Assembly (NCBI GenBank): GCA_029974275.1
Contig: JARKSN010000341.1
Span: forward strand, 1 to 23,254
Source of the DNA: Candidatus Hydrogenedentota bacterium
Lineage (GTDB): Bacteria > Hydrogenedentota > Hydrogenedentia > Hydrogenedentales > SLHB01
DNA length: 23,254 nt
Direction: 5' to 3'
Of the stretch, positions 2,402 to 23,254 are shown in pieces. Position numbers and translations under genes: made by a program. The stretch's first letter is position 1. The number at the start of each line of letters is the position of its first letter. The notes under the pieces were generated by a model. That model was given only the letters and a program-made list of their open reading frames with translations. It had not been told where the DNA came from and made no database searches.

Positions 2402-2431
2402 TTGCCATATATATGGGTGTCATGATATTAT
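2402..2431 (+). promoter_or_regulatory. Putative sigma70 promoter of the radical SAM operon
   Basis: TTGCCA (2402-2407), 18-nt spacer, TATTAT (2426-2431) with extended -10 TG at 2423-2424, inside an AT-rich patch 122 nt upstream of ATG 2554. Confidence 0.55.
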
Positions 2432-2433
2432 CT

Positions 2434-2490
2434 CCACGATATATTGTGTTTTTCGGGCGGCGTTGTGGCCTGGATTTCTATATCTTGTGT
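2434..2490. promoter_or_regulatory. Tandem NrdR-box-like operators
   Basis: CCACGATATATTGTGT (2434-2449, 14/16 to acaCwAtATaTwGtgt) and TTTCTATATCTTGTGT (2475-2490, 12/16). Their starts are 41 bp apart, and the first covers the predicted transcription start. Confidence 0.6.
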
Positions 2491-2553
2491 CGTCGAGATG
2501 TCGGCAAATGCCGGCATGGCGTGCGGTTGGATGTCATACAGTGAGGATCGCTC

Positions 2554-4251
2554 ATGAAAACGTGCAGCGTCTTGGTGCGTTTCCCAGGCAACCCTTTTTC
2601 TTTCAATGCTTTGCTGCCGGATATCCATGCGGCGAGCGCGGCGGGCGCGCTTTTGGAAGAGGGGCATGACACGCAGGTTTGGGATTTGGGGACGCTGGAC
2701 ACGATGGAGCGGCTTTTTCCGGCGCGTTACCGTGGCGTTTTGGAGCGGATCGCCGATCCGATGATGGAGGGGGGGATGCCGTCGGCGGGGGCGGTGCTGC
2801 AGACGGTGGTGCAGCGCGGTTCGTTGGACCGGGCGTTTGCTTCGCGTTGCGAGAAACTTTGTGCAGAGCTTGCCGAGACCTTGGCGGGGCAGCGGGGCCT
2901 GCATTTTGTGGGGTTTTCGTTGACGGCGGCGGAAGATGCGGCGGTTGCCGTTCGGGTGGCGCGGCGTTTGCGGGAGGAAAGGCCCGAGGCGCTTCTCGTG
3001 GTTTTTGGTCCGTACGCGGAGGCTTTTGCGGCGGCGGAAGATGTGGAGAGTCGCGGGGCGTTTGACTGTTATGTCGTCGCGGATCCGGAATTCGTGTTGC
3101 CGCGGTGGGCGGGGGTGTTGGGCAATCGCGTTGCGTGGGCTTCGGTCGCGAACTTGGCGTATGCGGTGGGCGCGCGGTTGCATTGGACGGCGAAGCGGCG
3201 CGCGGTTGAGTCGGAGGATCCGCCGTTGCCGGCCTATCATTGCGAGGCGTATCCGGCGTTGGCGGGGATGCACAAGATCAAGCTTTTTACGCTGGCGGAC
3301 AGTCAGGGATGCGCGTGCCGGTGCCATGCGTGCGCGTTGCCCGACAGCGAATTGGGTTTTCGGCGGACGTCTCCTGATCGGGTTCGAGAGGCGATGGTGG
3401 AGGCGGGCCTTGAGCACGGCGCCCGGGCGTTTCACGTGGCGGGGCCAGGGACGACGGGGGCGCATGCGCGGGCCGTCGCCATCGCGATTTCGGGGGGTGG
3501 GCTGGATGTCGCATACAGCCGTTCGCTGTCGATTGGCTTGACGGATCCGTCGGTGTTTCCGCTTTTGGAGGGGTCCGGTTGCCGGGCGGTATGGTTCCGG
3601 GTGGATACCGGCAGTCAGATGCTGCTGGAGAACCATTACGGGCGGGGGATCGAGGTTTCGCATGTGGAGCGGGTGTTGCGGGCCGCGAAAGGCGCTGGAT
3701 TGTTCACGGGGGCTCGGTTCACGTATCCCTGTCCGGGCGATGATCGGCACACGGAGGCCGAGACGATCCGGTTGGTGGAGCGCACGCGGCTGGATGCGGT
3801 CCATGTGGCGTTGCCGGAGGTTGTGTATCGTTCGACGTGGCATCGGCATCCGGAACTGTTTGGTTTTGGCAGGGAGGCGTCTTTGGGGGATGGGCGAGCG
3901 ATTGCCGGGCGGTTGCGTTTTCCGATGCCGAAATATTTGGAGCCGTTGCCGTATGCGGTGGGGCGTTTGGGCAAGGGGCAGGTGTTGGCGGGCAACGAGG
4001 CGCTTTCGTTGGAATTGGCGCGGCGCGATGTGACGACGTGTTTTCCGGAGGCGTTTTTTTTGGTGGCGCGGCTTGGTCAGCAGGCCGGCAAGGAACGGGC
4101 GCTTGCCTTGCGGGCGCAGCATCATTTCATGACCGGGGCGGTGTCGTCGATCGCGGCGTTGGCGTCTCGATTCAACCAGGCGGCTTGCGTTCCCGCCTAT
4201 GCGAACGCATTGCGTCGCACGGTGCGGTTGCGTCTGGCCGCTGGAGATTAG
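2554..4251 (+). CDS. Cobalamin-binding-domain radical SAM protein (divergent)
   Basis: CxxxCxxC in SQGCACRCHAC (nt 3310-3333). B12-binding-like N-terminal motifs (ALLEEGHDTQVWD, FVGFSL, VVFGPYA, FDCYVVADPE). RVDTGSQ sits at the usual GxESGS position. RBS GAGGA. Confidence 0.82.
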   Translation: MKTCSVLVRFPGNPFSFNALLPDIHAASAAGALLEEGHDTQVWDLGTLDTMERLFPARYRGVLERIADPMMEGGMPSAGAVLQTVVQRGSLDRAFASRCEKLCAELAETLAGQRGLHFVGFSLTAAEDAAVAVRVARRLREERPEALLVVFGPYAEAFAAAEDVESRGAFDCYVVADPEFVLPRWAGVLGNRVAWASVANLAYAVGARLHWTAKRRAVESEDPPLPAYHCEAYPALAGMHKIKLFTLADSQGCACRCHACALPDSELGFRRTSPDRVREAMVEAGLEHGARAFHVAGPGTTGAHARAVAIAISGGGLDVAYSRSLSIGLTDPSVFPLLEGSGCRAVWFRVDTGSQMLLENHYGRGIEVSHVERVLRAAKGAGLFTGARFTYPCPGDDRHTEAETIRLVERTRLDAVHVALPEVVYRSTWHRHPELFGFGREASLGDGRAIAGRLRFPMPKYLEPLPYAVGRLGKGQVLAGNEALSLELARRDVTTCFPEAFFLVARLGQQAGKERALALRAQHHFMTGAVSSIAALASRFNQAACVPAYANALRRTVRLRLAAGD

Positions 4252-4255
4252 CGGC

Positions 4256-5500
4256 ATGTCTTTCCCCGCGGTTGTGGTCACCGGCATGGGCGTGCTGGCC
4301 AGCAATGGTTTGGGCCGGGACGCGTTTTGGAAGGCCTTGGCGGAGGGGCATTCGGGGATTGGCCCGGTGACCCGTTTTGACACGTCGATGTTTCCCTGTC
4401 AGATCGGCGGCGAATTGAAGGATTTCCGGCCCGAGGATTTCATGTCCAAAAGCCAGGTGAAGCATTGGCACCGGCACGTGCATCAGGCCGTGGCGTCCGC
4501 CCGTTTGGCGGTGGAGGACTCGGGGTTGGCCTCGGCCGGGTATGATCCGGAACGCATGTCGTGCGCGGTGGGCACGAGCGTTGGGAATCCGAACGAGGCC
4601 TACCAATGGGGGCTCGACACGTTCGAGGCGCATGGTTACCGCAAACTTCCCAAGATGGGTTCTTCGGCGTTTTCAAGTCATTCGGCGACGGTTCATGTAA
4701 GCATTGATTTTGGGTTGCGCGGGCCGGCGATCACCATTGCCAGCGGCTGCGCCACGGGGATCGATGTGCTGGGATGGGGACTGGCGCAGATACGATCCGG
4801 TCGCGTGGACGCGGCGGTTGTCGGCGCGACGGAGTCCCCGTTGTTTCCGATGTCTTTCGCGACGGCCAGCGCGTTGGGGATATTGTCGAAGCGGAATGAG
4901 ACGCCGCATCAGGCCATGCGGCCTTTTGATCGCGGCAGCGACGGCATTGTGTTGAGCGAGGGGGCGGCGACTTTGGTGCTGGAGCGGGCGGATTATGCGC
5001 AGGCGCGGGGCGCGAAGATCTATGGCGAGGCGGCGGGATTTGGGGCCGCCGCGGAGGGGCTTAATCCGTTGATTCTGGACAAGGAGGGCGACGGGTTGTC
5101 GCGGGCGATTCGCGCGGCCATTGGCGATGCGGGCGCGGTTCCGGAGGACATTGATCATATTGAAAGCCACGGGGTGTCGCTCGAGATGTACGATCGGTGC
5201 GAGACCCGGGCGTATCAAAAGGTGTTTGGCCGCCGTTTGGCGCGGATGCCGTTGACGGCCATCAAGTCGATGATTGGGCAGGCGTATGCCGCGGGCGGGC
5301 TGCTGGGGGTGGCGGCGGGGTTCATGACGCTGGATACGGGGCTGATTCCGCCGATTCTCAATCTTGAGAACCCAGATCCCGAGAGCGGCATGGATTTTGT
5401 GGCTCCACGGCCTCGGTTGGGCGATGTGCAGACGGTGTTGACCACGGCCATGAGTTTTGGGGGCACGCACAGCGCGGTGGTGACGCGTCGGTTCCATTGA
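4256..5500 (+). CDS. Beta-ketoacyl synthase (KAS II/FabF-like) with atypical Cys-His-Gln triad
   Basis: VVVTGMG, ASGCATG (Cys165), MRPFDRGSDGIVLSEGA, SHGVS (His305), IKSMIGQA (Gln342 where FabF has His), SFGGTH. ATG lies 4 nt after the radical SAM stop. No symbol given because it is unlikely to be housekeeping fabF. Confidence 0.92.
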   Translation: MSFPAVVVTGMGVLASNGLGRDAFWKALAEGHSGIGPVTRFDTSMFPCQIGGELKDFRPEDFMSKSQVKHWHRHVHQAVASARLAVEDSGLASAGYDPERMSCAVGTSVGNPNEAYQWGLDTFEAHGYRKLPKMGSSAFSSHSATVHVSIDFGLRGPAITIASGCATGIDVLGWGLAQIRSGRVDAAVVGATESPLFPMSFATASALGILSKRNETPHQAMRPFDRGSDGIVLSEGAATLVLERADYAQARGAKIYGEAAGFGAAAEGLNPLILDKEGDGLSRAIRAAIGDAGAVPEDIDHIESHGVSLEMYDRCETRAYQKVFGRRLARMPLTAIKSMIGQAYAAGGLLGVAAGFMTLDTGLIPPILNLENPDPESGMDFVAPRPRLGDVQTVLTTAMSFGGTHSAVVTRRFH

Positions 5501-5523
5501 CGGGGGGAGCAGGAAGAGGTTGT

Positions 5524-5688
5524 ATGGCTAGGCAAGCGCACAGCGCGGCCCTCCTTGCGCGGGAACGGCCGGTTCAGCTCTTCGCGAGGCGCGCGCGGGC
5601 CGGCGGGGCTCCTGGCGTCTGGGGGAGGGGCCGTCGGCGCGGGGGCGCGGTCTTGCGTTTTGACGCGGATGCGGGTTGGCGACCATGA
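5524..5688 (+). CDS. Possible small basic ORF (54 aa)
   Basis: AGGAAGAGGT precedes ATG 5524, and the stop overlaps the kinase start (ATGA 5685-5688). The Arg/Gly/Ala-rich product could be a GC-rich artefact. Confidence 0.35.
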   Translation: MARQAHSAALLARERPVQLFARRARAGGAPGVWGRGRRRGGAVLRFDADAGWRP

Positions 5689-8186
5689 CCGGGTTGTCCA
5701 TATTGCTGCTATTTTCGGCGGCGTCGTGTTTGGCGTTGGGCGGCTTGGTGATGTGGCGCGATCCTCGCAACGCGACCAACCGCGCCTTCGCGGTGTTGGC
5801 GGCGAACCTGATGTTGTGGTCGTTGGGCGTGTTTTTGATCATTCACGCCGTTGACGAGGCGCAGGCGCGTTTTTTCCTGCGCGCCACGTTTGTCGTGGTT
5901 TCGTTCCTGCCCGCGGGCCTCTATCTGTTTATCGCCCTATTCCCCCGGCAACGTTTTGAGGGGTCGCGCGCGCTGCTGGCGTTGCTGTACGTGTTTGGGG
6001 GGCTGTCCATAGCGGGCGCGTTCACGCCGCAGTGGTATATCCAGCGCATCACGGTTTTGGAGGATGCTCCGCCGCTGGTCGCGTATGGCCCCGTTTTTTA
6101 CATCTTTTCCCTGGGAATCGTGCTGTCGACGATCTGTTCGTTCGTCAACATGTTGCGCAAGTTGAGGACGGCGGTCGGCATCGAGCGCAGCCAGGTCCAG
6201 TACGTGATTTTGGGCACGTTCGTTTCGACGGGTCTGGCCATTTCAAGCAATGTGTTCGCGCCGATATTGGGGATCGGCTCGACGCAGCCGTTTGGCCCGG
6301 TGTTTATGGTTGTCATGGCGGCGTTTTTCGCGTATGCCATGATCCGGTACCATCTGATGTCCATTTCCGTGATTATCTCGCGCACGGGCGTGTACGCGAT
6401 CATCATGGGCTTTGTCATCGTCGTGTTTTTGGGCACGGTCGCCGTGGTGCACCTGCTGTTTAGCGGGGGGGGCTACACGGAGGATCTGCTGCCGACGGTG
6501 CTGGCGGCGCTGGTCATTGCGTTGGGGCTGCAGCCGCTCAAGGAGCGCGTGCAGCTTGTTCTCGAGCGCACGTTGCTCAAGCGGCGGTATGACATTCATC
6601 GGTTGTTGGCGCGGACGGGCCAGCACGCCAGCCAGGCCGCCAATTTCGAGGAGCGGCTCGGGACGATTTGCCTGGATATCCGCAACACCATCGGCGTCGC
6701 CTCCATTCGCGTTTTGCTTGTCGACGAGGCCAATCCCGATGTCCTCGTCGTTGAATACACGGACAATCCCGACGAACGCGGCGCGCGCGTCGAGGGGTAC
6801 GCCGAGTTTCTGGGGGTTTTGCGAGAGCGTCCGGCCCCGGTCGTCCTCGAACAATTGCAGCGCCGGGCGCCCCATCTGGACCTTGCCCGGCTCATCGAGC
6901 CGATGAAGTCTTTGGGGGCGGCGTTATGCTTGCCGCTCAAAAGCGCCCGAGACCTCGCGGGCATCATGCTTTTGGGCGAGAAGACGTCGCGCGATCCGTT
7001 TCGTTCCGATGATTTGATGGTTTTCACGGCGTTGTCGGGGCCGTTGGCCACGGCCATCGAAAATGCCCGTCTGTACCGGCAGTTGGAGGAGGCCAACCAA
7101 CACCGCGCCCGCATTCTCAGCCATATGCGGGGCGGGGTGATTGCGGTGGACCTGGATGGTCGCGTCACGACGGCCAATCACTATGCCACCGAACTACTGG
7201 GGGCGATTGCCGTGGGGACTCACGTGAGCGGATTGCCGGCCCAGGTCGGCAGCATTCTCGAGGCGACCTTGACGCGGCAAAGCGCCGTGCGCGATTTGGA
7301 GACGCTCATTCCGGGCGCTGACGGCGCCGATGTGCCCGTCATGCTTTCTTCGTCGGTGTTGACTTCCGCCGGCGGCGCGCCGGCGGGGGCGATGATCACG
7401 ATATACGACTTGACCCAGGTCAAGCGCCTCGAGCAGAACGTGCAGCGCGTGCATCGTTTGTCTTCCATTGGAACGTTGGCGGCGGGAATGGCTCACGAGA
7501 TCAAGAATCCGCTTGTTTCGATCAAGACGTTCACGCAATTGTTGTTGAACCGGTATGACGATCCGGATTTTCGGGCCACGTTCACGGACATAGTGCCGCA
7601 CGAGGTGGAGCGGATCGATTCGATTGTTTCGCGCCTGCTGGATTTTGCGCGCCCGAAGCCGATACGGTTCGCGCCGCATGACGTCAAGAAGGTCATTTCG
7701 GAGGTGTTGACGCTGGTGGAGAACCAGGCGCAGAAGGCATGCATCACGATTGAAACACGTTTTCCAGACGATCCGCTGGAGATTTACGGGGACGAGCAGC
7801 AGATACATCAGGTGTTTTTGAACCTGGTGTTGAACGCGATCGACGCCATGACGGAGGTGGAGGGGGGGCATTTGCTCGTCAGCGCCGAGTTCGGCACGAT
7901 GTTGTTGCGTCGCAGCACGTTGATGCCGACGTTGGAGGTGGATTGCATCCGTATCCGGATCGTCGATACGGGGTGCGGCATTCCGCAGGAGAGCCTTGAA
8001 CGCATTTTCACGCCTTTTTTCAGCACCAAGGAGAGCGGCACGGGGCTGGGGCTTTCCATCGTGCACGGCATAGTCACGGAACATGGCGGCGAGATTGACG
8101 TCGCCAGTTCGCGCAAAGAGGGGACGTGTTTCACGGTCACGTTGCCGCTTGCGCGGACGCTCGCTTCTCGAGGAGGAGGCCAGTGA
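5685..8186 (+). CDS. Membrane sensor histidine kinase: multi-TM (7TM-type) N-domain, GAF, PAS, HisKA, HATPase; PrsK-like architecture
   Basis: About 9 hydrophobic segments in the first ~290 aa. GAF (LCLPLK..LAGIMLLGEK..TAIENARLY), PAS (GGVIAVDLDGRVTTAN), H-box AHEIKNP (His604, nt 7494), N-box NLVLNAIDAM, DTGCG, PFFSTK, GTGLGL. Confidence 0.93.
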   Translation: MTGLSILLLFSAASCLALGGLVMWRDPRNATNRAFAVLAANLMLWSLGVFLIIHAVDEAQARFFLRATFVVVSFLPAGLYLFIALFPRQRFEGSRALLALLYVFGGLSIAGAFTPQWYIQRITVLEDAPPLVAYGPVFYIFSLGIVLSTICSFVNMLRKLRTAVGIERSQVQYVILGTFVSTGLAISSNVFAPILGIGSTQPFGPVFMVVMAAFFAYAMIRYHLMSISVIISRTGVYAIIMGFVIVVFLGTVAVVHLLFSGGGYTEDLLPTVLAALVIALGLQPLKERVQLVLERTLLKRRYDIHRLLARTGQHASQAANFEERLGTICLDIRNTIGVASIRVLLVDEANPDVLVVEYTDNPDERGARVEGYAEFLGVLRERPAPVVLEQLQRRAPHLDLARLIEPMKSLGAALCLPLKSARDLAGIMLLGEKTSRDPFRSDDLMVFTALSGPLATAIENARLYRQLEEANQHRARILSHMRGGVIAVDLDGRVTTANHYATELLGAIAVGTHVSGLPAQVGSILEATLTRQSAVRDLETLIPGADGADVPVMLSSSVLTSAGGAPAGAMITIYDLTQVKRLEQNVQRVHRLSSIGTLAAGMAHEIKNPLVSIKTFTQLLLNRYDDPDFRATFTDIVPHEVERIDSIVSRLLDFARPKPIRFAPHDVKKVISEVLTLVENQAQKACITIETRFPDDPLEIYGDEQQIHQVFLNLVLNAIDAMTEVEGGHLLVSAEFGTMLLRRSTLMPTLEVDCIRIRIVDTGCGIPQESLERIFTPFFSTKESGTGLGLSIVHGIVTEHGGEIDVASSRKEGTCFTVTLPLARTLASRGGGQ

Positions 8187-8188
8187 TC

Positions 8189-10087
8189 ATGAACGTACTT
8201 CTGGCGCTTGCGGAAGATCGCGCCTTGCACGAGGCGCTCCGGGCGGCCGCGCCGGAATCGTGGCTGGTGCTGTTCGAGCGCAACGCGGAAGGGGCGCTGC
8301 GGCGGATGGTGTCGCTTCGTCCCGATGCGCTGTTGGTGGACGATTCGCTGGGGCTGGGGCGATCGCTTGTGCCGCGGCTGCGTCAATCGGCGCCGGGGGT
8401 TCCCCTTTTGGCGTTGTCGGCGCGAAACGACCCGGAGACGCTCGCCTCGTTTCAACTGGCGGGGGCGCAGGCGGTTCTGGCCAAGCCGTTTTCCGTGGAT
8501 TCGCTGCGCGAGACGCTGGCCGCGCTGGTGCAGCGTGGCGCTGCGGCTCCGGTCGATTCCCTGCCGGTGCGTCGCGCGGCGGAACGCCCTGCGGCCGTCT
8601 CTCCGGGGGTGAGTCAGCACCAGACGACGCTTCGTTGGCTGAGTCGGCTGAACGGTCAGATTGACGACGCGACTCGGCTGGCGCAAAGTCTGGTTGATGC
8701 GTCGGCGGATGTTTTTGACGCCGTCCGATGCGCGGTCGCTTTGGAGGGCGAGGATGGCATCCGCATCGTCGCCAGCCACGGGATCGGCGCTTCCGTGACC
8801 GAGGCGTTGCGGCTGGATTATCTGTCGGGCGTCATGCGCGCGTTCGAGGAAAACCCCTGTCTTATCGAGCGTTTTCCTGCGATGGAGGCGGTCGATGCGG
8901 GGCGCGAGATGGCGTTGTTGGGGGCGCGCCTTGCCGCGCCGCTGCGGATTTCCGGGCGGGTGGCGGGCGGTTTGTTCGTCGGCGAGAAGGCTTCGGGGCT
9001 GGAGTATACGGTGGAGGATCGCGAGTTGCTGGCGGGCATCGCGCGCACCGCGTCCACGTGCCTCGAGAACGCTTCGTTGTACAAGGATATCCGGGATCGA
9101 CAACGTCAGCTCGACACGGTTCTGGCGCACATCAGCGCAGGGGTGATCGTTGTCGGAAAAGACAAATGCGTCAAGATGATGAACGAGAGCGCCGGGCGCG
9201 TGTTGCAGGTGTCCCGGGACGAGGCGGTGGGGCGGAGCGTGCAGCGTTTGGGCAGCGGTTTCGCCGATGTCGCGTTGCGGACGTTGGCGGATCAGAAGCC
9301 GCGGTTGCGTCAGGAAGTGCGCGACGCGGCGATCAACGCGACGCTGGGCCTGAGCGCGACGCCTTTGGGCGACGACGCGGTGGCGATTGTGTTCTCGCGC
9401 TTGCCGGAGGATAGCGGCAAGATGGAGGATGTGGCCTATAGTCCGTTTTGGGAGTATTTGGCGTCGCGGGTGGCGCAGGAGATCAAGAATCCGATGGTGG
9501 CGGTCAACACGTTTGCGCAACTGTTGCCGCGCAAATACGACTCCGCCGATTTCCGGCAGGCGTTCAGCGATGTTGTGCAACAGGAGGTCGCGCGCATCAA
9601 CGGCGTGGTGGAAACGTTGTTCGAGTTTGCGCGGCATCCTCGCCTTTCGCTCCATCCCAGCAGCCTCAACGATGCGGTTCAGAGCGTCCTGCGCTCTTTT
9701 GACGAAGAGCTGGCGCGCTGTTCCATACGCGTGCAGGCGGAACTCGATCCCTCTGCGCCGCAGGTCAATCTTGATCCGCAGTTTTTCGCCCAGGCGTTGC
9801 AGAATGTCGTGCAGAATTCCATCGACGCCATGCCCGAGGGAGGCACGCTGCACGTTCGCACGCATGTCAACGGAGGCACGTGTGAAGTGATGGTGGAGGA
9901 CTCGGGGCCGGGCGTGCCCGAACAGGACGCGCCCCTGGTGTTCATGCCGTTTTTCAGCACGAAGGAAAAGGGCATGGGGCTTGGGCTCACCATCGCGAAC
10001 CGCATTTTGCGGCAACATGACGGGCATATCCGTCTTGTCCCCGGACACAAAGGGGGCGGCGCGTTTGTGCTGGAGGTGCCGTCCTGA
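8189..10087 (+). CDS. REC-GAF-PAS-HisKA-HATPase protein lacking the phospho-His (pseudo-histidine kinase)
   Basis: Receiver motifs PDALLVDD, LSAR, LAKPFS, then GAF and PAS. H-box reads AQEIKNP (CAG 9476-9478). N (NVVQNSIDA), G1 (DSGPG), F (PFFSTK) and G2 (GMGLGL) boxes are intact. RBS AGGAGGAGG; alternative GTG start at 8183. Confidence 0.9.
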   Translation: MNVLLALAEDRALHEALRAAAPESWLVLFERNAEGALRRMVSLRPDALLVDDSLGLGRSLVPRLRQSAPGVPLLALSARNDPETLASFQLAGAQAVLAKPFSVDSLRETLAALVQRGAAAPVDSLPVRRAAERPAAVSPGVSQHQTTLRWLSRLNGQIDDATRLAQSLVDASADVFDAVRCAVALEGEDGIRIVASHGIGASVTEALRLDYLSGVMRAFEENPCLIERFPAMEAVDAGREMALLGARLAAPLRISGRVAGGLFVGEKASGLEYTVEDRELLAGIARTASTCLENASLYKDIRDRQRQLDTVLAHISAGVIVVGKDKCVKMMNESAGRVLQVSRDEAVGRSVQRLGSGFADVALRTLADQKPRLRQEVRDAAINATLGLSATPLGDDAVAIVFSRLPEDSGKMEDVAYSPFWEYLASRVAQEIKNPMVAVNTFAQLLPRKYDSADFRQAFSDVVQQEVARINGVVETLFEFARHPRLSLHPSSLNDAVQSVLRSFDEELARCSIRVQAELDPSAPQVNLDPQFFAQALQNVVQNSIDAMPEGGTLHVRTHVNGGTCEVMVEDSGPGVPEQDAPLVFMPFFSTKEKGMGLGLTIANRILRQHDGHIRLVPGHKGGGAFVLEVPS

Positions 10088-10276
10088 AGTTGATTTTTGT
10101 GCGCCGATGAAGTACAAGAAGGTCTGCGGCGCATGTTGCGTCTGAGGCGGGCGATCCGAGCCCGCGCGATGTTTCAAGATCCGCAGCGGTGCGTAAGGGT
10201 GGTTGGTGCAGCGCGACCGTGCGGAGAATTCGAATAGATCGCGTTTTTGGCGTTCTCTGTTGGGCGATCATTTTGC

Positions 10277-10311
10277 TGTCTGTTTTGATCTATCCTTTGT
10301 CATTTTTGACA
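10277..10311. promoter_or_regulatory. Putative upstream activator (bEBP enhancer) sites
   Basis: Perfect palindrome TGTCA-TTTT-TGACA (10298-10311) and a 10/14 copy TGTCTGTTTTGATC starting 21 bp earlier, about 95 bp upstream of the -24 element. Confidence 0.6.
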
Positions 10312-10365
10312 CAATGATGGCGTTGAATACGAGGATCTTGGGAGATGTCCGGCCATCAGTTTCTG

Positions 10366-10378
10366 TAAGTCGTTGTTT
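10366..10378. promoter_or_regulatory. Putative IHF-binding site
   Basis: TAAGTCGTTGTTT has one mismatch to YAANNNNTTGATW, is followed by a T-rich tract, and lies between the enhancer and the sigma54 promoter. Confidence 0.55.
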
Positions 10379-10405
10379 TTGAATGTTTTTTGAAGATATT
10401 TTCTG

Positions 10406-10420
10406 TGGCACACGAATTGC
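10406..10420 (+). promoter_or_regulatory. Sigma54 (RpoN) -24/-12 promoter of the PEP-CTERM gene
   Basis: TGGCAC-ACGAA-TTGC, with exact GG-N10-GC spacing, about 150 nt upstream of ATG 10570. Confidence 0.88.
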
Positions 10421-10569
10421 GTCTCTTATTGGCAGACTACAGAAAAGTTGAAGCGTTCGATGGTGATTAGGTGCATAGACGTGGTGGTGATCGCGCTCGC
10501 GAGCGGATTGCCGGGATGCGGCCACGAGCGCTCGGGAAAGCGCGAGAAACCGGTTAAGGAGAAAGCAAC

Positions 10570-11286
10570 ATGAGGACCCTTGCGACGCTGACGATGGCCT
10601 TTGCCTTGGTGTCGGCCCCAGCCTTTGCGTCGTTTATGCCTACGCAATTGATTCCGCCGACAACGGTCACCGAGCCATGGACGCACATGGGCGGCTATGA
10701 CGAGGCCAACCTGTTCGAGATTTACAATGCATTGTATGGGACGTCCTACACGTCGAATGCGCAGTTGGAGCCGCTCCAAATGACGCCGGATGATCTGTTT
10801 GCGCTGGATCCTGGCGACAAGGCGGGGCCTTTCCAGGCGCGCGCTCGGTATGCGGGGTATGTGCAGAATTTCGGATGGTATTACAACACGCCGGGCGGCC
10901 CCGTGTTGACGCCGCTCATTTCGAACGTGAACGCGTCCGGCATGTTGCCGAACCTGCCGCAATACACCGCGCCGGCGTTTGTGCCGACGGGTCCGTTTGG
11001 GTTTTACGACACGGCCAACGGCAAGACGTGGTTCTCGGAATCCTCGCTGAACCCGAACAACGAAGACCATGTGGTGATGTACAAGACCCCAATTCCGTAC
11101 ACCTATTTGCTGGCGTGGGAAGACAAGCCGTTCCCGCCGAATGGGTCGGCGGACCGGGATTATCAGGACTTGCTGGTTGAGATTTATCTGGGGCCGGGCA
11201 CGATTGTTCCCGAGCCGGCTTCGATGTTGCTGTTGGGCCTTGGCATTGCGGGCGTGATGGCGCGTCGGTTCCGCCGCGCTGCATGA
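10570..11286 (+). CDS. PEP-CTERM sorting-domain surface protein (DUF4114-like passenger)
   Basis: Signal peptide MRTLATLTMAFALVSAPAFA. C-terminal VPEPAS, TM helix and basic tail RRFRRAA. Acidic motif LAWED..ADRDYQDLLV. RBS AAGGAG. Confidence 0.95.
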   Translation: MRTLATLTMAFALVSAPAFASFMPTQLIPPTTVTEPWTHMGGYDEANLFEIYNALYGTSYTSNAQLEPLQMTPDDLFALDPGDKAGPFQARARYAGYVQNFGWYYNTPGGPVLTPLISNVNASGMLPNLPQYTAPAFVPTGPFGFYDTANGKTWFSESSLNPNNEDHVVMYKTPIPYTYLLAWEDKPFPPNGSADRDYQDLLVEIYLGPGTIVPEPASMLLLGLGIAGVMARRFRRAA

Positions 11287-11310
11287 CGGGGTGAGGCAAG
11301 CGATTTTGGG

Positions 11311-11348
11311 AACGCCGCAACGGTACGCCGTTGCGGCGTTTGTTTTTT
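11311..11348 (+). terminator. Intrinsic terminator
   Basis: Perfect 13-bp stem AACGCCGCAACGG/CCGTTGCGGCGTT, loop TACG, then TGTTTTTT, 24 nt after the PEP-CTERM stop. Confidence 0.9.
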
Positions 11349-11582: not shown

Positions 11583-12545
11583 ATGAGCCAGGCATCCGGT
11601 GATGTATTGACTCAACTCGAGGCCGCTTTGCAGCGCTGGACAGATGAAATGGGGAGTTCCCAGACCAGCATTGCGCGGCACTTGGTCGCGGTGAGGGAGC
11701 GGATTCAGGCCGTTGCAGACCAGGCCGCGCAGGCAGGCGGCCCGAACGGCGGCTGGGACGATGCCTTCAAGGGCGTTTCGGACATGGTGGAGCGGTTGCT
11801 GGAAGAGTGGCGCCGCATGTCGGCCGAATGGTCCCAGTGGAGGCCGGGCGTTGAGCAAGCGGTGATGGGGCTGCGCGAAGAGTTGGGTTTGGTGAAGGCG
11901 CAGGCGGGGCGGATCGCAGAGTTGGAAGAGCGGGTTGAAACGCTTATCAAGGCGGTTCGGCTGCAGCATCAGGCGCTGGAACGTCTTTCGCTTCAGAGCC
12001 ATGGGGCCCAGGCGGAGTCCTCGGAGCCGATCCAGGGGGATGCGTCGTTCCAGATGGATGGCGATGCCTCGAAGGATGCGTTTGGCGTTTTGGAACACGG
12101 CGAGGCGGGCGGGCGTCGTCCTCGGTTGGGCGAAATTTTGTTGGCGGAACAGGATGTTACGGATGATCAGTTGGGAGAGGCGCTCGCGGTTCAAGAGCAG
12201 GACCCATACCGCCGGATAGGGGCTATTCTGGTGGATCAGGGCATTGCGACGGAAGAGACCGTCGCGAGGGCTCTGGCGCGTCAGTTGATCATGAGATTTA
12301 TAGATTTGGATCGGGTGGAGCCCGATCCCGAGGCGGTGCGGGTCATCAGCGAGCGGCTTGCGCATCATCATGGTTGTATCCCCGTGAGTGTCACGGGCGA
12401 CGAGGTGCTGTTGGCCATGGCCAATCCGCTGGATTTGATTGCAATAGAGGACGTGGAGTTGGCGAGCGGGCGTCGCGTCGAACCGGCTGTCGCTACGGCG
12501 ACCGCCATTCGCAGGGCGATTGTCCGGAGTTTCGGATTGCGATAG
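11583..12545 (+). CDS. Coiled-coil protein with C-terminal MshEN / T2SSE_N domain, no ATPase
   Basis: Tandem RLGEILLAEQDVTDDQLGEALAVQ and RIGAILVDQGIATEETVARALARQ, then a GspE/PilB N-domain (LLAMANPLDLIAIEDVELASG). No Walker motifs. RBS GGAGGG; TGATACAAT upstream. Confidence 0.85.
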   Translation: MSQASGDVLTQLEAALQRWTDEMGSSQTSIARHLVAVRERIQAVADQAAQAGGPNGGWDDAFKGVSDMVERLLEEWRRMSAEWSQWRPGVEQAVMGLREELGLVKAQAGRIAELEERVETLIKAVRLQHQALERLSLQSHGAQAESSEPIQGDASFQMDGDASKDAFGVLEHGEAGGRRPRLGEILLAEQDVTDDQLGEALAVQEQDPYRRIGAILVDQGIATEETVARALARQLIMRFIDLDRVEPDPEAVRVISERLAHHHGCIPVSVTGDEVLLAMANPLDLIAIEDVELASGRRVEPAVATATAIRRAIVRSFGLR

Positions 12546-20358: not shown

Positions 20359-22035
20359 CTAGGCGTTTTCGTGTTGATGTCTGGGCGTGAATCCGTCAAT
20401 GGGGCCCGTTTTACCTGTTTTGCCGATGCAGATGCAGTTTTTTCCTTGACGTTTGGCTTCGTAGAGGCCGTCATCGGCAAAACGGATGAGGGCCTCGCAA
20501 TCGAGCATGGCTTCGTGGTCGAGGACGGACAGGCCGATGCTCGCGGTGACCACGAAGTCTTGCGGCATGCCTTGGTATGGTTTTTCCCGCACTTGGCTGA
20601 GCAGACGTTGGGCCTGGGCTTGGGCTCCTTCCAGGCCGGTTTGCGGCATGATGACGACGAATTCTTCGCCGCCGTATCGGGCGACGAGGTCGATCCGGCG
20701 GGTGACTTTGAGGACGCGGGTGGCCATTTCGCGCAGGATGCGGTCGCCTTGCAGGTGTCCGAAGGAGTCGTTGATTTTTTTGAAGTTGTCGATATCGAAG
20801 ATCATGCAGGAGAGCGGCAAGGCGTAGCGCCGGGCACGTTCGAATTCTTCTTCGATGCGGGTTCGGAAGTGGCGGTGGTTGTACAGTCCCGTGAGGCCGT
20901 CGGTAATGGCCAGGAGTTCGAGGCGTTCGTTGGCTTTTTGAATGCTTTCGAAGAGGTGGGCGCGTTCCAGGGCGTTTGAGGCCGCTTCGGCGACGATTTC
21001 GAAGAAGCTGATTTCGCGCGCGGTGAAAGGGGCATGTTTTCGGGCGGCCCGCAGGAACAAGGAGCCGACGTTTGCATCGAATAGGACGATGGGAATGACG
21101 ATGAGGCTTTGGATGTCGGCGCGCCGGAGTTCCGCGGTGAATTCGGCGGTTAGGGGCGCGTGTTGGATGTCGTCGACGATGACTTTGTGGCGCGTGTCGA
21201 GGGCGTGGCGCAGTTCGGGGTATTTGCGCAGATCGATGGCGAGATCGCGCACGTGCTCGTCTTCGTGGGAGGCCAGGACGTGCCCCCGGCTTTCGCCGCC
21301 CCATACGCGCACGACGGAGCAGCGTTCCATTTGCACGACGCGGGCGATTTGTTCGACGAACACGTAGAGGATGTCGTGGGAGCGCCTTCGGGCGGATATG
21401 GCTTTGAGGATTTCGAGGACCGAGAACAGATCGTTTTTGTCCATCGAGATGGTGTGTTGCATGGCGGTCAGGGATTGGGAGAGATGGGCCATTAGGCTGG
21501 TGACGTGCGCCGAGCAGATGTCGGATTCCGGGGCGGCCGGGGCGTATTCCGCGGCTGCGGGGTCGTGTTGGGCTAGCATGGAGGCCAGCCGTTCGACGTC
21601 GGGGCGGTGTCCCGAGCAGTATCCTTGAAAGGCGGCGGGTTGTGGCGCTGCCGTGTTCGTTTTGCCGAAAAGCGCGAAGTTGTGCCGGGAAGAGAGGGCG
21701 ATCAGCAGGCGGTCCGTTCCGGCGAAGTCGGCGGGGGGGACTCCTGCAACGTTGTCGCAGCGCTGCCAGCCCTCGGGCAACGTTCCAAACACGATGACGC
21801 GGCGGGCCACGGCTCGGGCTGCGTCGAGGGTTTCGTGGGAAGCGGCGGTCTCGCCGTCGATGAAGAGGTAGAGGCTATCGCCGGGGTCTCGGGTCGCCAT
21901 GGCCCCGATTTCGGTGGCAAGTTCTTCGTAGACAGCGGCGGCGTCAAACGTCACCCATTTGGTTTCCCTGTTGGGGGAGGCGTTCATGACGTCGAGGATA
22001 TCGTTCCGCGATGCCGGTTTGTCTTTGGGGTCCAT
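20359..22035 (-). CDS. Diguanylate cyclase: N-terminal sensory domain, GAF, GGDEF
   Basis: LAITDGLTGLYN, FDIDNFKKINDSFGHLQGD, RRIDLVARYGGEEF (intact active site and RxxD I-site), YEAKRQGKN. GAF ends in SNALERAHLF. Confidence 0.95.
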   Translation of the reverse strand: MDPKDKPASRNDILDVMNASPNRETKWVTFDAAAVYEELATEIGAMATRDPGDSLYLFIDGETAASHETLDAARAVARRVIVFGTLPEGWQRCDNVAGVPPADFAGTDRLLIALSSRHNFALFGKTNTAAPQPAAFQGYCSGHRPDVERLASMLAQHDPAAAEYAPAAPESDICSAHVTSLMAHLSQSLTAMQHTISMDKNDLFSVLEILKAISARRRSHDILYVFVEQIARVVQMERCSVVRVWGGESRGHVLASHEDEHVRDLAIDLRKYPELRHALDTRHKVIVDDIQHAPLTAEFTAELRRADIQSLIVIPIVLFDANVGSLFLRAARKHAPFTAREISFFEIVAEAASNALERAHLFESIQKANERLELLAITDGLTGLYNHRHFRTRIEEEFERARRYALPLSCMIFDIDNFKKINDSFGHLQGDRILREMATRVLKVTRRIDLVARYGGEEFVVIMPQTGLEGAQAQAQRLLSQVREKPYQGMPQDFVVTASIGLSVLDHEAMLDCEALIRFADDGLYEAKRQGKNCICIGKTGKTGPIDGFTPRHQHENA

Positions 22036-22202: not shown

Positions 22203-22333
22203 GAGGATACCTGGGGTGCTTGCGTATCTGAGGTAGATCGCTCGATACTTTTCGCGGGCAGCGTGTGTGCATGCGACGAGGAAGAGGCGCAGCATGTGTA
22301 AGCGGTTTTTCGCTTCAACGTGGGGAGCAAGTC

Positions 22334-23254
22334 ATGATCATGGCCAGTACCGTTAGGCGCGAGGGCGTGGGACTATCGTGGTGCACGCTGGTGTTGTGGG
22401 CGTTGTTTTGTGTTGTGGTCGCGCCGGGCGTTTCTGCCGTGGCGGATGTCTATTTGAGCGATGGGAGCCTCGGAGACGTTAATCTGACCGGGTGGGGTCA
22501 GATTAACTTCAATACAACGACGGGCGACTGTAGCGGGTACAATCCGTCCAGCGTGTGGACCTCCATCGCGACGGGCGTCAATGACGGCGGGGTCATGACG
22601 TGGCGGTTCCGCAACCTTACGCTTCCTGTTGGACAGAATGTCTACATTCTTGGCGATAAACCGGGATCGATTGCCTGCAGCGGCGATCTGGTTGCGCCGT
22701 GCTATTTCCCCACGTGGTATTCCAGCGGTCTGTGCGGCGGCGGCGTGGGCGGCGCGGGCGGCATGGCCGGGGTGGCCGGCACGAAGGGTTCCGGAGGGAC
22801 CCGCGGGACATATGGCAGTGGCGCGGGCGGCGGCGGCGGCGGCAACGGTTGTCCTGGGAATTGCAGCGCGTCGAACGGCGGCGGCGGCAGTAATGGGTAT
22901 GCTGGCGTGAGCGGCGGCAACGGCAGCACGGGCGGTTCGAACACGGCTGGCGCTACGGGATCTTTGGGGTTCAATCAAACGACCGGCGCGGGCAGCGCCG
23001 GCTCTGGGGGAGCGGGCGGATACCAAGCCAATGCCGGCGGTGGCGGCGGCGCAGGGTCTGGCGGCGGCGGCGGCGGTTCGGGCGGATGCGTCCGGCTCGC
23101 GTACGACGGTCAGGCAGGTGGCCGCGGCGGCAACGCCACGAATGATCCGTGGGGGCAGACGCGAGGGGCCCCGGGCGGATCGGGCGCTAATGGGGCGGAC
23201 GGAGGCGTGGGGGGAAATGCCTCTCGCATCAATGATCCGGCGAGCTTGGCCGTA
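22334..23254 (+). CDS. Glycine-rich exported protein (3'-truncated; not in ORF track)
   Basis: Hand translation: GGGGAG RBS, ATG 22334, 307 open codons to the window end. Signal peptide (..LVLWALFCVVVAPGVSA), a beta-rich cap (DGSLGDVNL..TWRFRNLTLP..VYILGDKP), then GGxGGx tracts. Confidence 0.88.
   Translation, partial: MIMASTVRREGVGLSWCTLVLWALFCVVVAPGVSAVADVYLSDGSLGDVNLTGWGQINFNTTTGDCSGYNPSSVWTSIATGVNDGGVMTWRFRNLTLPVGQNVYILGDKPGSIACSGDLVAPCYFPTWYSSGLCGGGVGGAGGMAGVAGTKGSGGTRGTYGSGAGGGGGGNGCPGNCSASNGGGGSNGYAGVSGGNGSTGGSNTAGATGSLGFNQTTGAGSAGSGGAGGYQANAGGGGGAGSGGGGGGSGGCVRLAYDGQAGGRGGNATNDPWGQTRGAPGGSGANGADGGVGGNASRINDPASLAV

Follow-up and report, generated by a model that had tools for sequence, protein, structure and literature searches.

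A FabF-fold ketosynthase with a Cys-His-Gln active site in a conserved sensor-kinase operon of Candidatus Hydrogenedentes

Gene layout and conservation of the operon

The window analysed here is a complete contig of 23,254 nt (JARKSN010000341.1) from a Candidatus (Ca.) Hydrogenedentes genome, and its flagged stretch carries five genes, all on the forward strand (Table 1). The first four encode a B12-binding radical S-adenosylmethionine (SAM)-fold protein (rSAM), a FabF-fold ketosynthase (KS), a sensor kinase with a seven-transmembrane (7TM) domain (HK1), and a pseudokinase with a receiver domain (REC; HK2); the fifth encodes a PEP-CTERM protein and is assigned to a transcription unit of its own. 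A first-pass annotation, made from the letters alone, had recognised and placed all five genes, and the gaps that it reported, 4 nt between the rSAM and KS genes and 2 nt between the HK1 and HK2 genes, were confirmed. Likewise, it had seen no acyl carrier protein (ACP), reductase, or dehydratase, and none of these families matched among the 19 window open reading frames (ORFs) scanned. It also proposed a bridging ORF between KS and HK1. The ATGA overlap with the kinase start exists, but the 54-codon frame is not a conserved gene: its GC content is 74%, its second-position GC fraction (GC2) is 0.71 versus 0.43–0.52 in real genes, and its best match in the loci of 60 relatives reaches only E 0.58. 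Of 44 loci, 36 have a KS–HK1 gap of between -4 and 20 nt. Rfam and tRNA scans of the window returned zero matches.

Conservation was surveyed in 101 genomes, namely this one and 100 from its family and order, and 60 loci were fetched, covering all families and including KS-less genomes. Because the surveyed genomes are kin and many are incomplete, the presence counts carry no statistic. KS was found in 71 genomes, rSAM in 87, HK1 in 73, and HK2 in 72; across the phylum, KS is present in 79 of 135 genomes. The order rSAM, KS, 7TM kinase, and REC pseudokinase is kept in 42 of the 60 fetched loci, and KS and HK1 occur together in 70 genomes (KS only in 1, HK1 only in 3, neither in 27), which bears out the earlier proposal that enzymes and kinases form one unit. 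Furthermore, a sigma54 response regulator (REC-AAA-HTH) lies directly 3' of HK2 in 45 of 46 loci, the exception being the nearest relative (G019), and this regulator was found in 67 genomes. Its absence here was overlooked by the first-pass annotation, as were two NrdR-type boxes before the operon. In this genome the regulator was not found, the best local match scoring 472 bits versus at least 726 for 43 orthologues, and the stretch that separates HK2 from the PEP-CTERM gene, which occupies its place, gave no remnant (best E 0.10).

A PfkB-family gene usually lies 3' of the cassette, and directly 3' of rSAM where the cassette is missing. Decay intermediates are represented by a 207-aa KS remnant between rSAM and pfkB (L109:3100-3723), by rSAM-HK1-pfkB (L083:6629-10142), and by rSAM-HK1-HK2-regulator without KS (L081). 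At L103:2541-3539, a different gene, presumably of a sugar/nucleoside-kinase-like family, adjoins a lone rSAM on its 3' side.

Table 1. Features of the flagged stretch, in window coordinates.
Feature	Position	Strand	Remarks
Sigma70-type promoter-like site	2402..2431	+	10/12 match, extended -10; assigned to the operon
NrdR-type box 1	2434..2449	.	Six key positions of the published box present
NrdR-type box 2	2475..2490	.	25-bp spacer to box 1, four helical turns centre to centre
B12-binding radical SAM-fold protein (rSAM), 565 aa	2554..4251	+	Fold match; CxxxCxxC = C253, C257, C260
FabF-fold ketosynthase (KS), 414 aa	4256..5500	+	Cys165-His305-Gln342 plus Lys337; malonyl/pantetheine site and gate remodelled
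GC-rich KS-HK1 spacer, 184 nt	5501..5684	+	Contains 54-codon frame 5524-5688; no conserved gene
HK1, HisKA_7TM-GAF-PAS-HisKA-HATPase kinase, 833 aa	5685..8186	+	Phospho-His604 intact
HK2, REC-GAF-PAS-HisKA-HATPase pseudokinase, 632 aa	8189..10087	+	Gln430 replaces phospho-His; Asp51 and Lys99 retained
Sigma54 -24/-12 promoter of the PEP-CTERM gene	10406..10420	+	Sequence match
DUF4114-type PEP-CTERM protein, 238 aa	10570..11286	+	Profiles; separate transcription unit
Intrinsic terminator-like hairpin	11310..11341	+	14 pairs, T tail; 3' of the PEP-CTERM gene

The ketosynthase and its sensor kinases

The predicted KS model (predicted local distance difference test, pLDDT, 88.6) adopts the thiolase-type FabF fold, with template-modelling (TM) scores of 0.94–0.95 to FabF structures and an identity of 36–38% to the best of them (PDB 1J3N and 4LS5). 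Cys165, His305, Lys337, and Gln342 occur without exception in the 45 Hydrogenedentes KSs compared, and no Cys-His-His triad is present; the third triad position is His in 72 of 72 ordinary FabFs versus Gln342 here. Simultaneously, residues that are 95–100% conserved in the same 72 FabFs are swapped (T307V, T309L, F231I, G400S, N405H, and His342 to Gln), position 267 is changed from Asp to Glu, and position 208, mostly Arg or Lys in FabFs, is Gly. In E. coli FabF, the residues that bind the carbonyl of the substrate are His303 and His340, the gate consists of GFGG, Asp265, and Asn404, and Arg206 is a contact residue for the ACP, according to the accessible part of PMC7138838. By the author's reading of the alignments, these functional residues map to KS positions 342, 400–403, 267, 405, and 208. 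Given these swaps, normal elongation by KS is unlikely, and the loading of an acyl chain on the Cys appears to be preserved.

In a FastTree phylogeny, the Hydrogenedentes KSs form one group (support 100), join other Cys-His-Gln KSs that precede 7TM kinases (98), and are separated from the housekeeping FabFs, among them the one of this genome (96). The description of KS as atypical thus holds on both the tree and the replaced residues. That it is just an additional FabF beside an ordinary two-component system is scarcely credible: its best family and fold are indeed those of FabF, but it scores 334.6 bits against the TIGR03150 cut-off of 493.75, the counterpart of His340 is replaced in every orthologue, a separate FabF with an ACP lies on contig C323 and groups with the housekeeping enzymes, and the linkage to 7TM genes described below is rare in ordinary FabF loci. 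Besides that FabF, four more ketosynthase clusters occur in this genome (G000, contigs C2, C84, C257, and C336), with a radical SAM gene near the KS on C336 and ACPs on C84 and C257.

Beyond the phylum, a DNA pattern of the Gln motif, in the form seen outside Hydrogenedentes, gave 80 metagenome loci, of which 74 contain such a KS and 60 show the full Cys-His-Gln. The control comprised 80 loci from a genome-collection scan with the Gln-type KS alignment, which carry the generic motif, 77 of the 80 with Cys-His-His. A 7TM gene lies within 7 kb downstream of KS in 19 of 19 metagenome loci with at least 6 kb of DNA, in 35 of 39 with at least 3 kb, and in 52 of 66 with 300 nt, versus 1 of 80 control FabF loci. 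The next gene after KS encodes a 7TM protein, a B12-rSAM, or an ICMT-family methyltransferase in 63 of 66 metagenome loci and in 0 of 80 controls, and an ACP occurs in 1 of 74 metagenome loci versus 40 of 80 controls. Two layouts recur. The minimal one consists of KS, one or two 7TM kinases, a REC-GAF-PAS kinase-like protein, and a regulator. The extended one, which in one case comes from Elusimicrobiota, consists of a sigma54 regulator, KS, one to three B12-rSAMs, ICMT, 7TM proteins, and often a gene for a sigma54 DNA-binding domain.

At the head of extended clusters, a protein of about 350–390 aa with this sigma54 DNA-binding domain is found (L270:3312-4385; also L247, L259, L272, L297, L307, L309, and L315), possibly a dedicated or truncated RpoN paralogue. 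A Nitrospiraceae locus (L181:7998-16008), the informative one from the genome-collection scan, combines a Cys-Tyr-His KS variant with an NAD_binding_4 (SDR) reductase, a 7TM-GAF kinase, a GAF-PAS kinase-like protein, and a regulator whose receiver is joined to an output that we take to be of the HD type. In the wider clade, FabF-like domains also stand behind PilZ, REC, PocR, or PocR-GGDEF (P0176, P0206, P0207, P0216, P0220, P0227, P0228, and P0233); judged by domain order, the fusion of KS to REC, PilZ, PocR, and GGDEF is the arrangement of a regulated output enzyme.

The two kinases of the window differ in their phosphorylation sites, as the earlier description of a kinase and pseudokinase pair had it. 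HK1, the only HisKA_7TM protein found in this genome, keeps the phospho-His, which is present in 48 of 48 orthologues. In HK2, Gln stands at this position in 47 of 47 orthologues, and the receiver residues Asp51 (46 of 47) and Lys99 (47 of 47) are retained. Outside the phylum, the second kinase keeps the His in one lineage and carries Asp or Glu in another.

These features can also be read in another way, in which KS itself is the sensor, capturing acyl chains on Cys165 and reporting the acyl-ACP or acyl-coenzyme A (CoA) status to the kinases by contact, with the radical SAM pseudoenzyme as a second, cobalamin- or SAM-binding input. The loss of the second His and the conserved Thr pair, with Cys165, His305, and Lys337 remaining, is in keeping with such a role, as are the minimal clusters of KS plus kinases without tailoring or carrier genes (e.g., L258 and L271) and the recurrent enzyme decay in the module, where the radical SAM motif is lost in most Hydrogenedentes copies and the His of the second kinase gives way to Gln, Asp, or Glu. 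However, many KSs sit amid one to three intact B12-rSAM genes and an ICMT gene (26 and 18 of 74 loci, respectively), as in a pathway, the 7TM domain implies a ligand from outside or from the membrane, and the REC, PilZ, and PocR fusions place KS downstream of signals. A sensor role for KS is therefore rather unlikely, though it stands as the foremost alternative to a synthase. 

Promoter boxes, the radical SAM protein, and the PEP-CTERM neighbour

The published NrdR box has six key positions, C4, A6, A8, T9, T11, and G13 (accessible part of PMC13584703), and boxes with 24–27 bp spacers are bound by NrdR in vitro, as far as the available text of PMC12051234 goes. The window pair falls inside the bound range with its 25 bp spacer, and box 1 has all six key bases. 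With a matrix trained on relatives only, the pair ranks second in the genome and box 1 is the second-best single site. Scored by the six positions, a box occurs in 52 of 53 of the relatives' upstream regions versus 58 of 901 controls, and a phased pair in 25 of 53 versus 1 of 901; 4 of the 57 regions were omitted, being without a mapped start or sufficient DNA. A 16-mer consensus matches at 12 or more of 16 positions in 50 of the 53 regions and at 13 or more in 35, compared with 9.4% and 1.9% of 800 AT-rich control windows. The box spacings peak at 30–32 and 60–61 bp. Meanwhile, the nrdR gene of this genome, which scores over its cut-off, has a box pair 33 bp apart upstream, recovered with the relatives-only matrix, a box pair precedes nrdD, and a box stands before 17 of the 21 loci of the ribonucleotide reductase (RNR) large subunit that have upstream DNA (25 fetched). 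Given the phased boxes at the operon promoter, it is probable that dATP/ATP-loaded NrdR represses it together with the RNR genes. The sigma70-like site is assigned to the operon by its location just before the boxes, as the number of such sites is at the chance level (3 counted versus 2.4 expected).

Single NrdR-type sites elsewhere in the genome, at genes that we take to be thyX-like and ftsK-like and at others, are near chance and were not used. Four NrdR-type boxes, including the genome's best single site, lie at G000:C186:13137-13323 between a metal-transporter-like operon, presumably CbiM-like, and a glycogen-synthase-like gene.

The rSAM model (pLDDT 85.7) matches the fold of TsrM, AprD4, MgmA, CysS, and OxsB. 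The window protein itself is below the Pfam cut-off and has no PF02310 match, which is found only in orthologues; orthologues from other lineages match both PF02310 and PF04055 with CxxxCxxC intact. Within Hydrogenedentes, only 11 of 57 rSAMs, the window copy included, keep CxxxCxxC, and the motif-bearing proteins are scattered within one family, which suggests, on a FastTree phylogeny with long-branch warnings, that radical chemistry has been lost repeatedly. The protein itself seems to have been retained, also in genomes that no longer have KS and kinases. Its subfamily is represented in 15 of the 74 outside KS loci (27% identity over 439 aa), and all 14 of these copies long enough to show the motif have CxxxCxxC. 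A profile search with the rSAM alignment had returned 10 proteins only; the outside orthologues came later from the DNA pattern. A partnership of rSAM with the class II reductase NrdJ was considered and rejected, as TIGR02504 is matched in 23 of 101 genomes (2 over the cut-off) versus 87 with rSAM, and this genome has no PF02867 match. Two NrdD-like genes are present in this genome (C268:119099-121204 and C222:79-2571).

The boxes and the rSAM gene could also belong to an old NrdR-controlled rSAM-pfkB unit of nucleotide metabolism that received a KS-kinase-regulator cassette by insertion, so that the boxes would serve rSAM or pfkB and not the signalling genes. The position of the PfkB gene described above, the persistence of boxes in the 13 upstream regions from loci without a full KS, and the genomes with rSAM but no KS all suit such a history. 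It is nevertheless improbable, because the rSAM subfamily is found inside the KS-7TM clusters of other lineages and so arrived with the cassette, boxes are present in all 24 loci without a same-strand pfkB in view (some of these loci end at contig edges), and the KS remnant between rSAM and pfkB at L109 indicates loss from within.

The sigma54 promoter before the PEP-CTERM gene is real, as the first-pass annotation had held: no other place in the window matches without a mismatch, the 4.38-Mb genome has 11 strict sites with this one included, and such a site precedes 4 of 6 PEP-CTERM genes whose upstream regions were examined (2 strict, 2 looser). Control of PEP-CTERM genes by RpoN is known, and the PrsK/PrsR/RpoN system shares with the present one a 7TM-GAF kinase, a sigma54 activator, and a sigma54 promoter before a PEP-CTERM gene (PMC9850573, available portion). 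A circuit of this kind had been proposed in which KS and rSAM make a signal and the kinases drive the adjacent promoter. HK1, the genome's only such kinase found, does contain HisKA_7TM and GAF, cassette and PEP-CTERM genes are together in 58 of the 101 genomes, and the cassette regulator is a sigma54 activator, which would permit a remote control of PEP-CTERM genes in relatives. The conserved linkage that the proposal called for did not appear, as a true PEP-CTERM gene occurs in 0 of the 60 relatives' loci (five PEP-like regex matches were discarded because the hydrophobic tail is missing), and the output link fails for this reason. Moreover, 13 genomes have KS only, 11 have PEP-CTERM only, and 19 have neither; in the single-contig G064 and the 10-contig G015, the cassette is present with no PEP-CTERM or exosortase match. 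An identification with PrsK/PrsR is likewise not supported, since HK1 reaches 125 bits against the TIGR02916 (PrsK) cut-off of 300, the cassette regulator 344.3 bits against the TIGR02915 (PrsR) cut-off of 502.6, and none of the 17 TIGR02915 matches of this genome, where the cassette regulator was not found, attains the latter. The cassette further differs from PrsK/PrsR in its extra PAS domain and pseudokinase, and it is not linked or co-distributed with PEP-CTERM/exosortase genes. The proposed circuit is hence very unlikely, and the PEP-CTERM gene is most likely, on this comparison of loci, only an accidental neighbour of the cassette.

N-acyl amino acid synthases are linked to PEP-CTERM/exosortase loci, a background on which the same proposal drew; a search of this genome for the exosortase-linked acyltransferase TIGR03694 gave no match. 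Of seven RNA-library runs, all with small shares, four were compared with the window as contigs. These four come from three studies of biofilm and activated sludge, and their contigs match the PEP-CTERM gene at 99% identity or more, extending over 10447–11297 only, plus a 35-nt foreign piece at 8019–8053. Their left edges (10447–10460) lie 15–28 nt past the predicted sigma54 start near 10432. They miss the four-gene operon and its junctions and, being contigs only, show neither silence nor a start.

Proposed mechanism and related systems

The operon is best read as a phylum-conserved maker or processor of an acyl signal with its own sensor and regulator, a reading that is given an even chance. 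Under it, a promoter with NrdR-type boxes, which are conserved and presumably bound, would be repressed with the RNR genes. KS would load an acyl chain on Cys165, with acyl-ACP or acyl-CoA supplied by other parts of the genome. As its malonyl site is rebuilt, the enzyme is proposed to catalyse something other than elongation (head-to-head condensation, transfer, or release), by which a small lipid-like molecule is made or processed. Outside Hydrogenedentes, the intact B12 radical SAM enzymes and the ICMT-family methyltransferase of the same cluster would decorate this molecule; within the phylum, the inherited rSAM would mostly have decayed to a non-radical, ligand-binding protein. HK1 would sense the molecule in the membrane and autophosphorylate His604, and the His-less HK2 may act as a partner subunit, a phosphate sink, or a phosphatase through its receiver. 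The output would be the operon's own sigma54 response regulator, as its observed place in the gene order suggests. Since searches detected that regulator neither here nor in the nearest relative, the module would be truncated or rewired in these two genomes, and the sigma54 PEP-CTERM gene of the window would be a separately transcribed neighbour. A synthase-plus-sensor reading, as first proposed, is thus the best available, but its output tie to PEP-CTERM and PrsK/PrsR is unsupported.

Several observations weigh against this mechanism. His340 of FabF binds the substrate carbonyl, so the Gln-form KS may be a binder and not a synthase. Taken together, the Gln-bearing KSs do not group as a single clade in the FastTree phylogeny, and Glu114, which may be a base like that of PpyS, is shared by all 44 Hydrogenedentes KSs compared, yet it is not kept throughout the remaining Cys-His-Gln KSs. 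The 7TM, B12, and ICMT profiles behind the metagenome counts were partly built from the tested loci, with representatives confirmed by Pfam, and grouping the 56 full-length KSs of the metagenome loci by identity leaves 26 clusters at 70% and 9 at 55%. The joint catalysis by rSAM and KS that the first-pass annotation envisaged is weakened, because 46 of 57 rSAM orthologues are without CxxxCxxC (the window copy retains it) and rSAM occurs without KS in 20 of 101 genomes (KS without rSAM in 4). HK1 is retained without KS in G014, G030, and G060, and in genus g29 (G028, G037, G042, and G046; genomes 78–91% complete) the regulator was found and KS, kinases, and rSAM were not, the mirror image of this genome; with HK1, the regulator, and rSAM each occurring without KS, the parts of the cassette are separable. 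The operon in the fetched Hydrogenedentes loci is without a conserved exporter or further tailoring gene. As for the boxes, the nearest relative (L084) has no match of 12/16, 28 of 53 regions lack a pair phased at 30–33 or 40–43 bp, and it is not obvious why a quorum signal should be placed under NrdR repression.

Compared with FabF/KAS II, KS has the same fold, Cys, first His, and Lys, but it differs in its Cys-His-Gln, its rebuilt malonyl site and gate, the missing ACP neighbour, and its fixed linkage to sensor kinases. The closest working analogue appears to be phcBSRQ of Ralstonia, in which a lipid-related enzyme, a membrane kinase, a protein with receiver and kinase domains, and a regulator share one operon (PMC8578825, in its available part). 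Here, too, one conserved operon groups an enzyme with a membrane kinase and a regulator, the last of which was not found in this genome. PhcB is a methyltransferase, whereas the present operon has a ketosynthase, a HisKA_7TM sensor, a sigma54 activator as output, and NrdR-type boxes. The likeness is one of architecture only, and no homology of the synthases is claimed.

A second comparison is offered by the photopyrone synthase PpyS, whose receptor is a LuxR solo and not a kinase. PpyS is a Cys-His-Asn ketosynthase that makes its signal by head-to-head condensation without malonyl decarboxylation; it shares with KS the stand-alone ketosynthase fold and an amide at the third triad position, and it differs in being Cys-His-Asn and modelled on OleA, as KS is of the FabF type (PMC4578411, accessible text). 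In the anammox ladderane cluster, altered-triad FabF homologues also lie beside radical SAM genes; this cluster has an ACP, FabZ, and a KS/CLF-like pair with a Cys-less dead subunit, and no kinases are described in the accessible portion of the preprint (bioRxiv 10.64898/2026.05.19.726425). The B12-dependent radical SAM enzymes named above have the same two-domain fold as rSAM, and differ from most Hydrogenedentes copies in the loss of CxxxCxxC from the latter. Known NrdR regulons show the same phased 16-bp boxes with six key bases, a motif also found at the phylum's nrdR, nrdD, and RNR large-subunit genes, but the boxed operon here is without a ribonucleotide reductase (PMC13584703 and PMC12051234, both as far as accessible).

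Literature searches, which covered few subscription journals, found no function for Cys-His-Gln FabF homologues, no description of a KS-sensor operon or of a radical SAM pseudoenzyme of this kind, only unrelated matches on Hydrogenedentes kinases and quorum sensing, and, in the accessible parts of sources that concern archaeal kinases, no ligand of HisKA_7TM. A search of main texts for an NrdR-boxed radical SAM operon found none either, so that the target lists of NrdR surveys could hold it.

More tentatively, and with a low probability for the whole, Cys-His-Gln KSs and HisKA_7TM kinases might constitute a widespread, undescribed lipid-signal system in uncultured bacteria, one that is wired into the NrdR regulon in Hydrogenedentes. 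The deoxynucleotide (dNTP) status would then switch the production or sensing of an acyl signal together with a sigma54 programme, and rSAM would be a radical-dead, B12/SAM-binding regulatory subunit. If true, HisKA_7TM domains would gain a first class of ligand, and the supply of DNA precursors would be tied directly to cell-cell or developmental signalling. Through its fixed pairing with 7TM genes, KS becomes a candidate source of the signal for a common orphan sensor domain, with concrete clusters for expression (L277, L279, L270, L258, L271, and L181). In addition, the NrdR-type boxes make it possible to test whether the dNTP sensor governs a signalling operon that encodes no reductase, rSAM presents a natural series from intact enzyme to pseudoenzyme inside one phylum, and a tempting PEP-CTERM reading is corrected.

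Outside the flagged stretch, the window holds further genes. A repeat-containing Ser/Thr kinase gene cut by the contig start (2-1444, forward strand) and a 208-aa ORF without a family match (1518-2144, forward) precede the operon; their place beside the cassette is not conserved. The contig that carries the PEP-CTERM gene also holds genes for an MshEN c-di-GMP-binding protein (11583-12545, forward) and a GAF-GGDEF cyclase (20359-22035, reverse). A Gly-rich, signal-peptide-like ORF without a Pfam or NCBIfam match (22265-23254, forward) is cut by the contig end.

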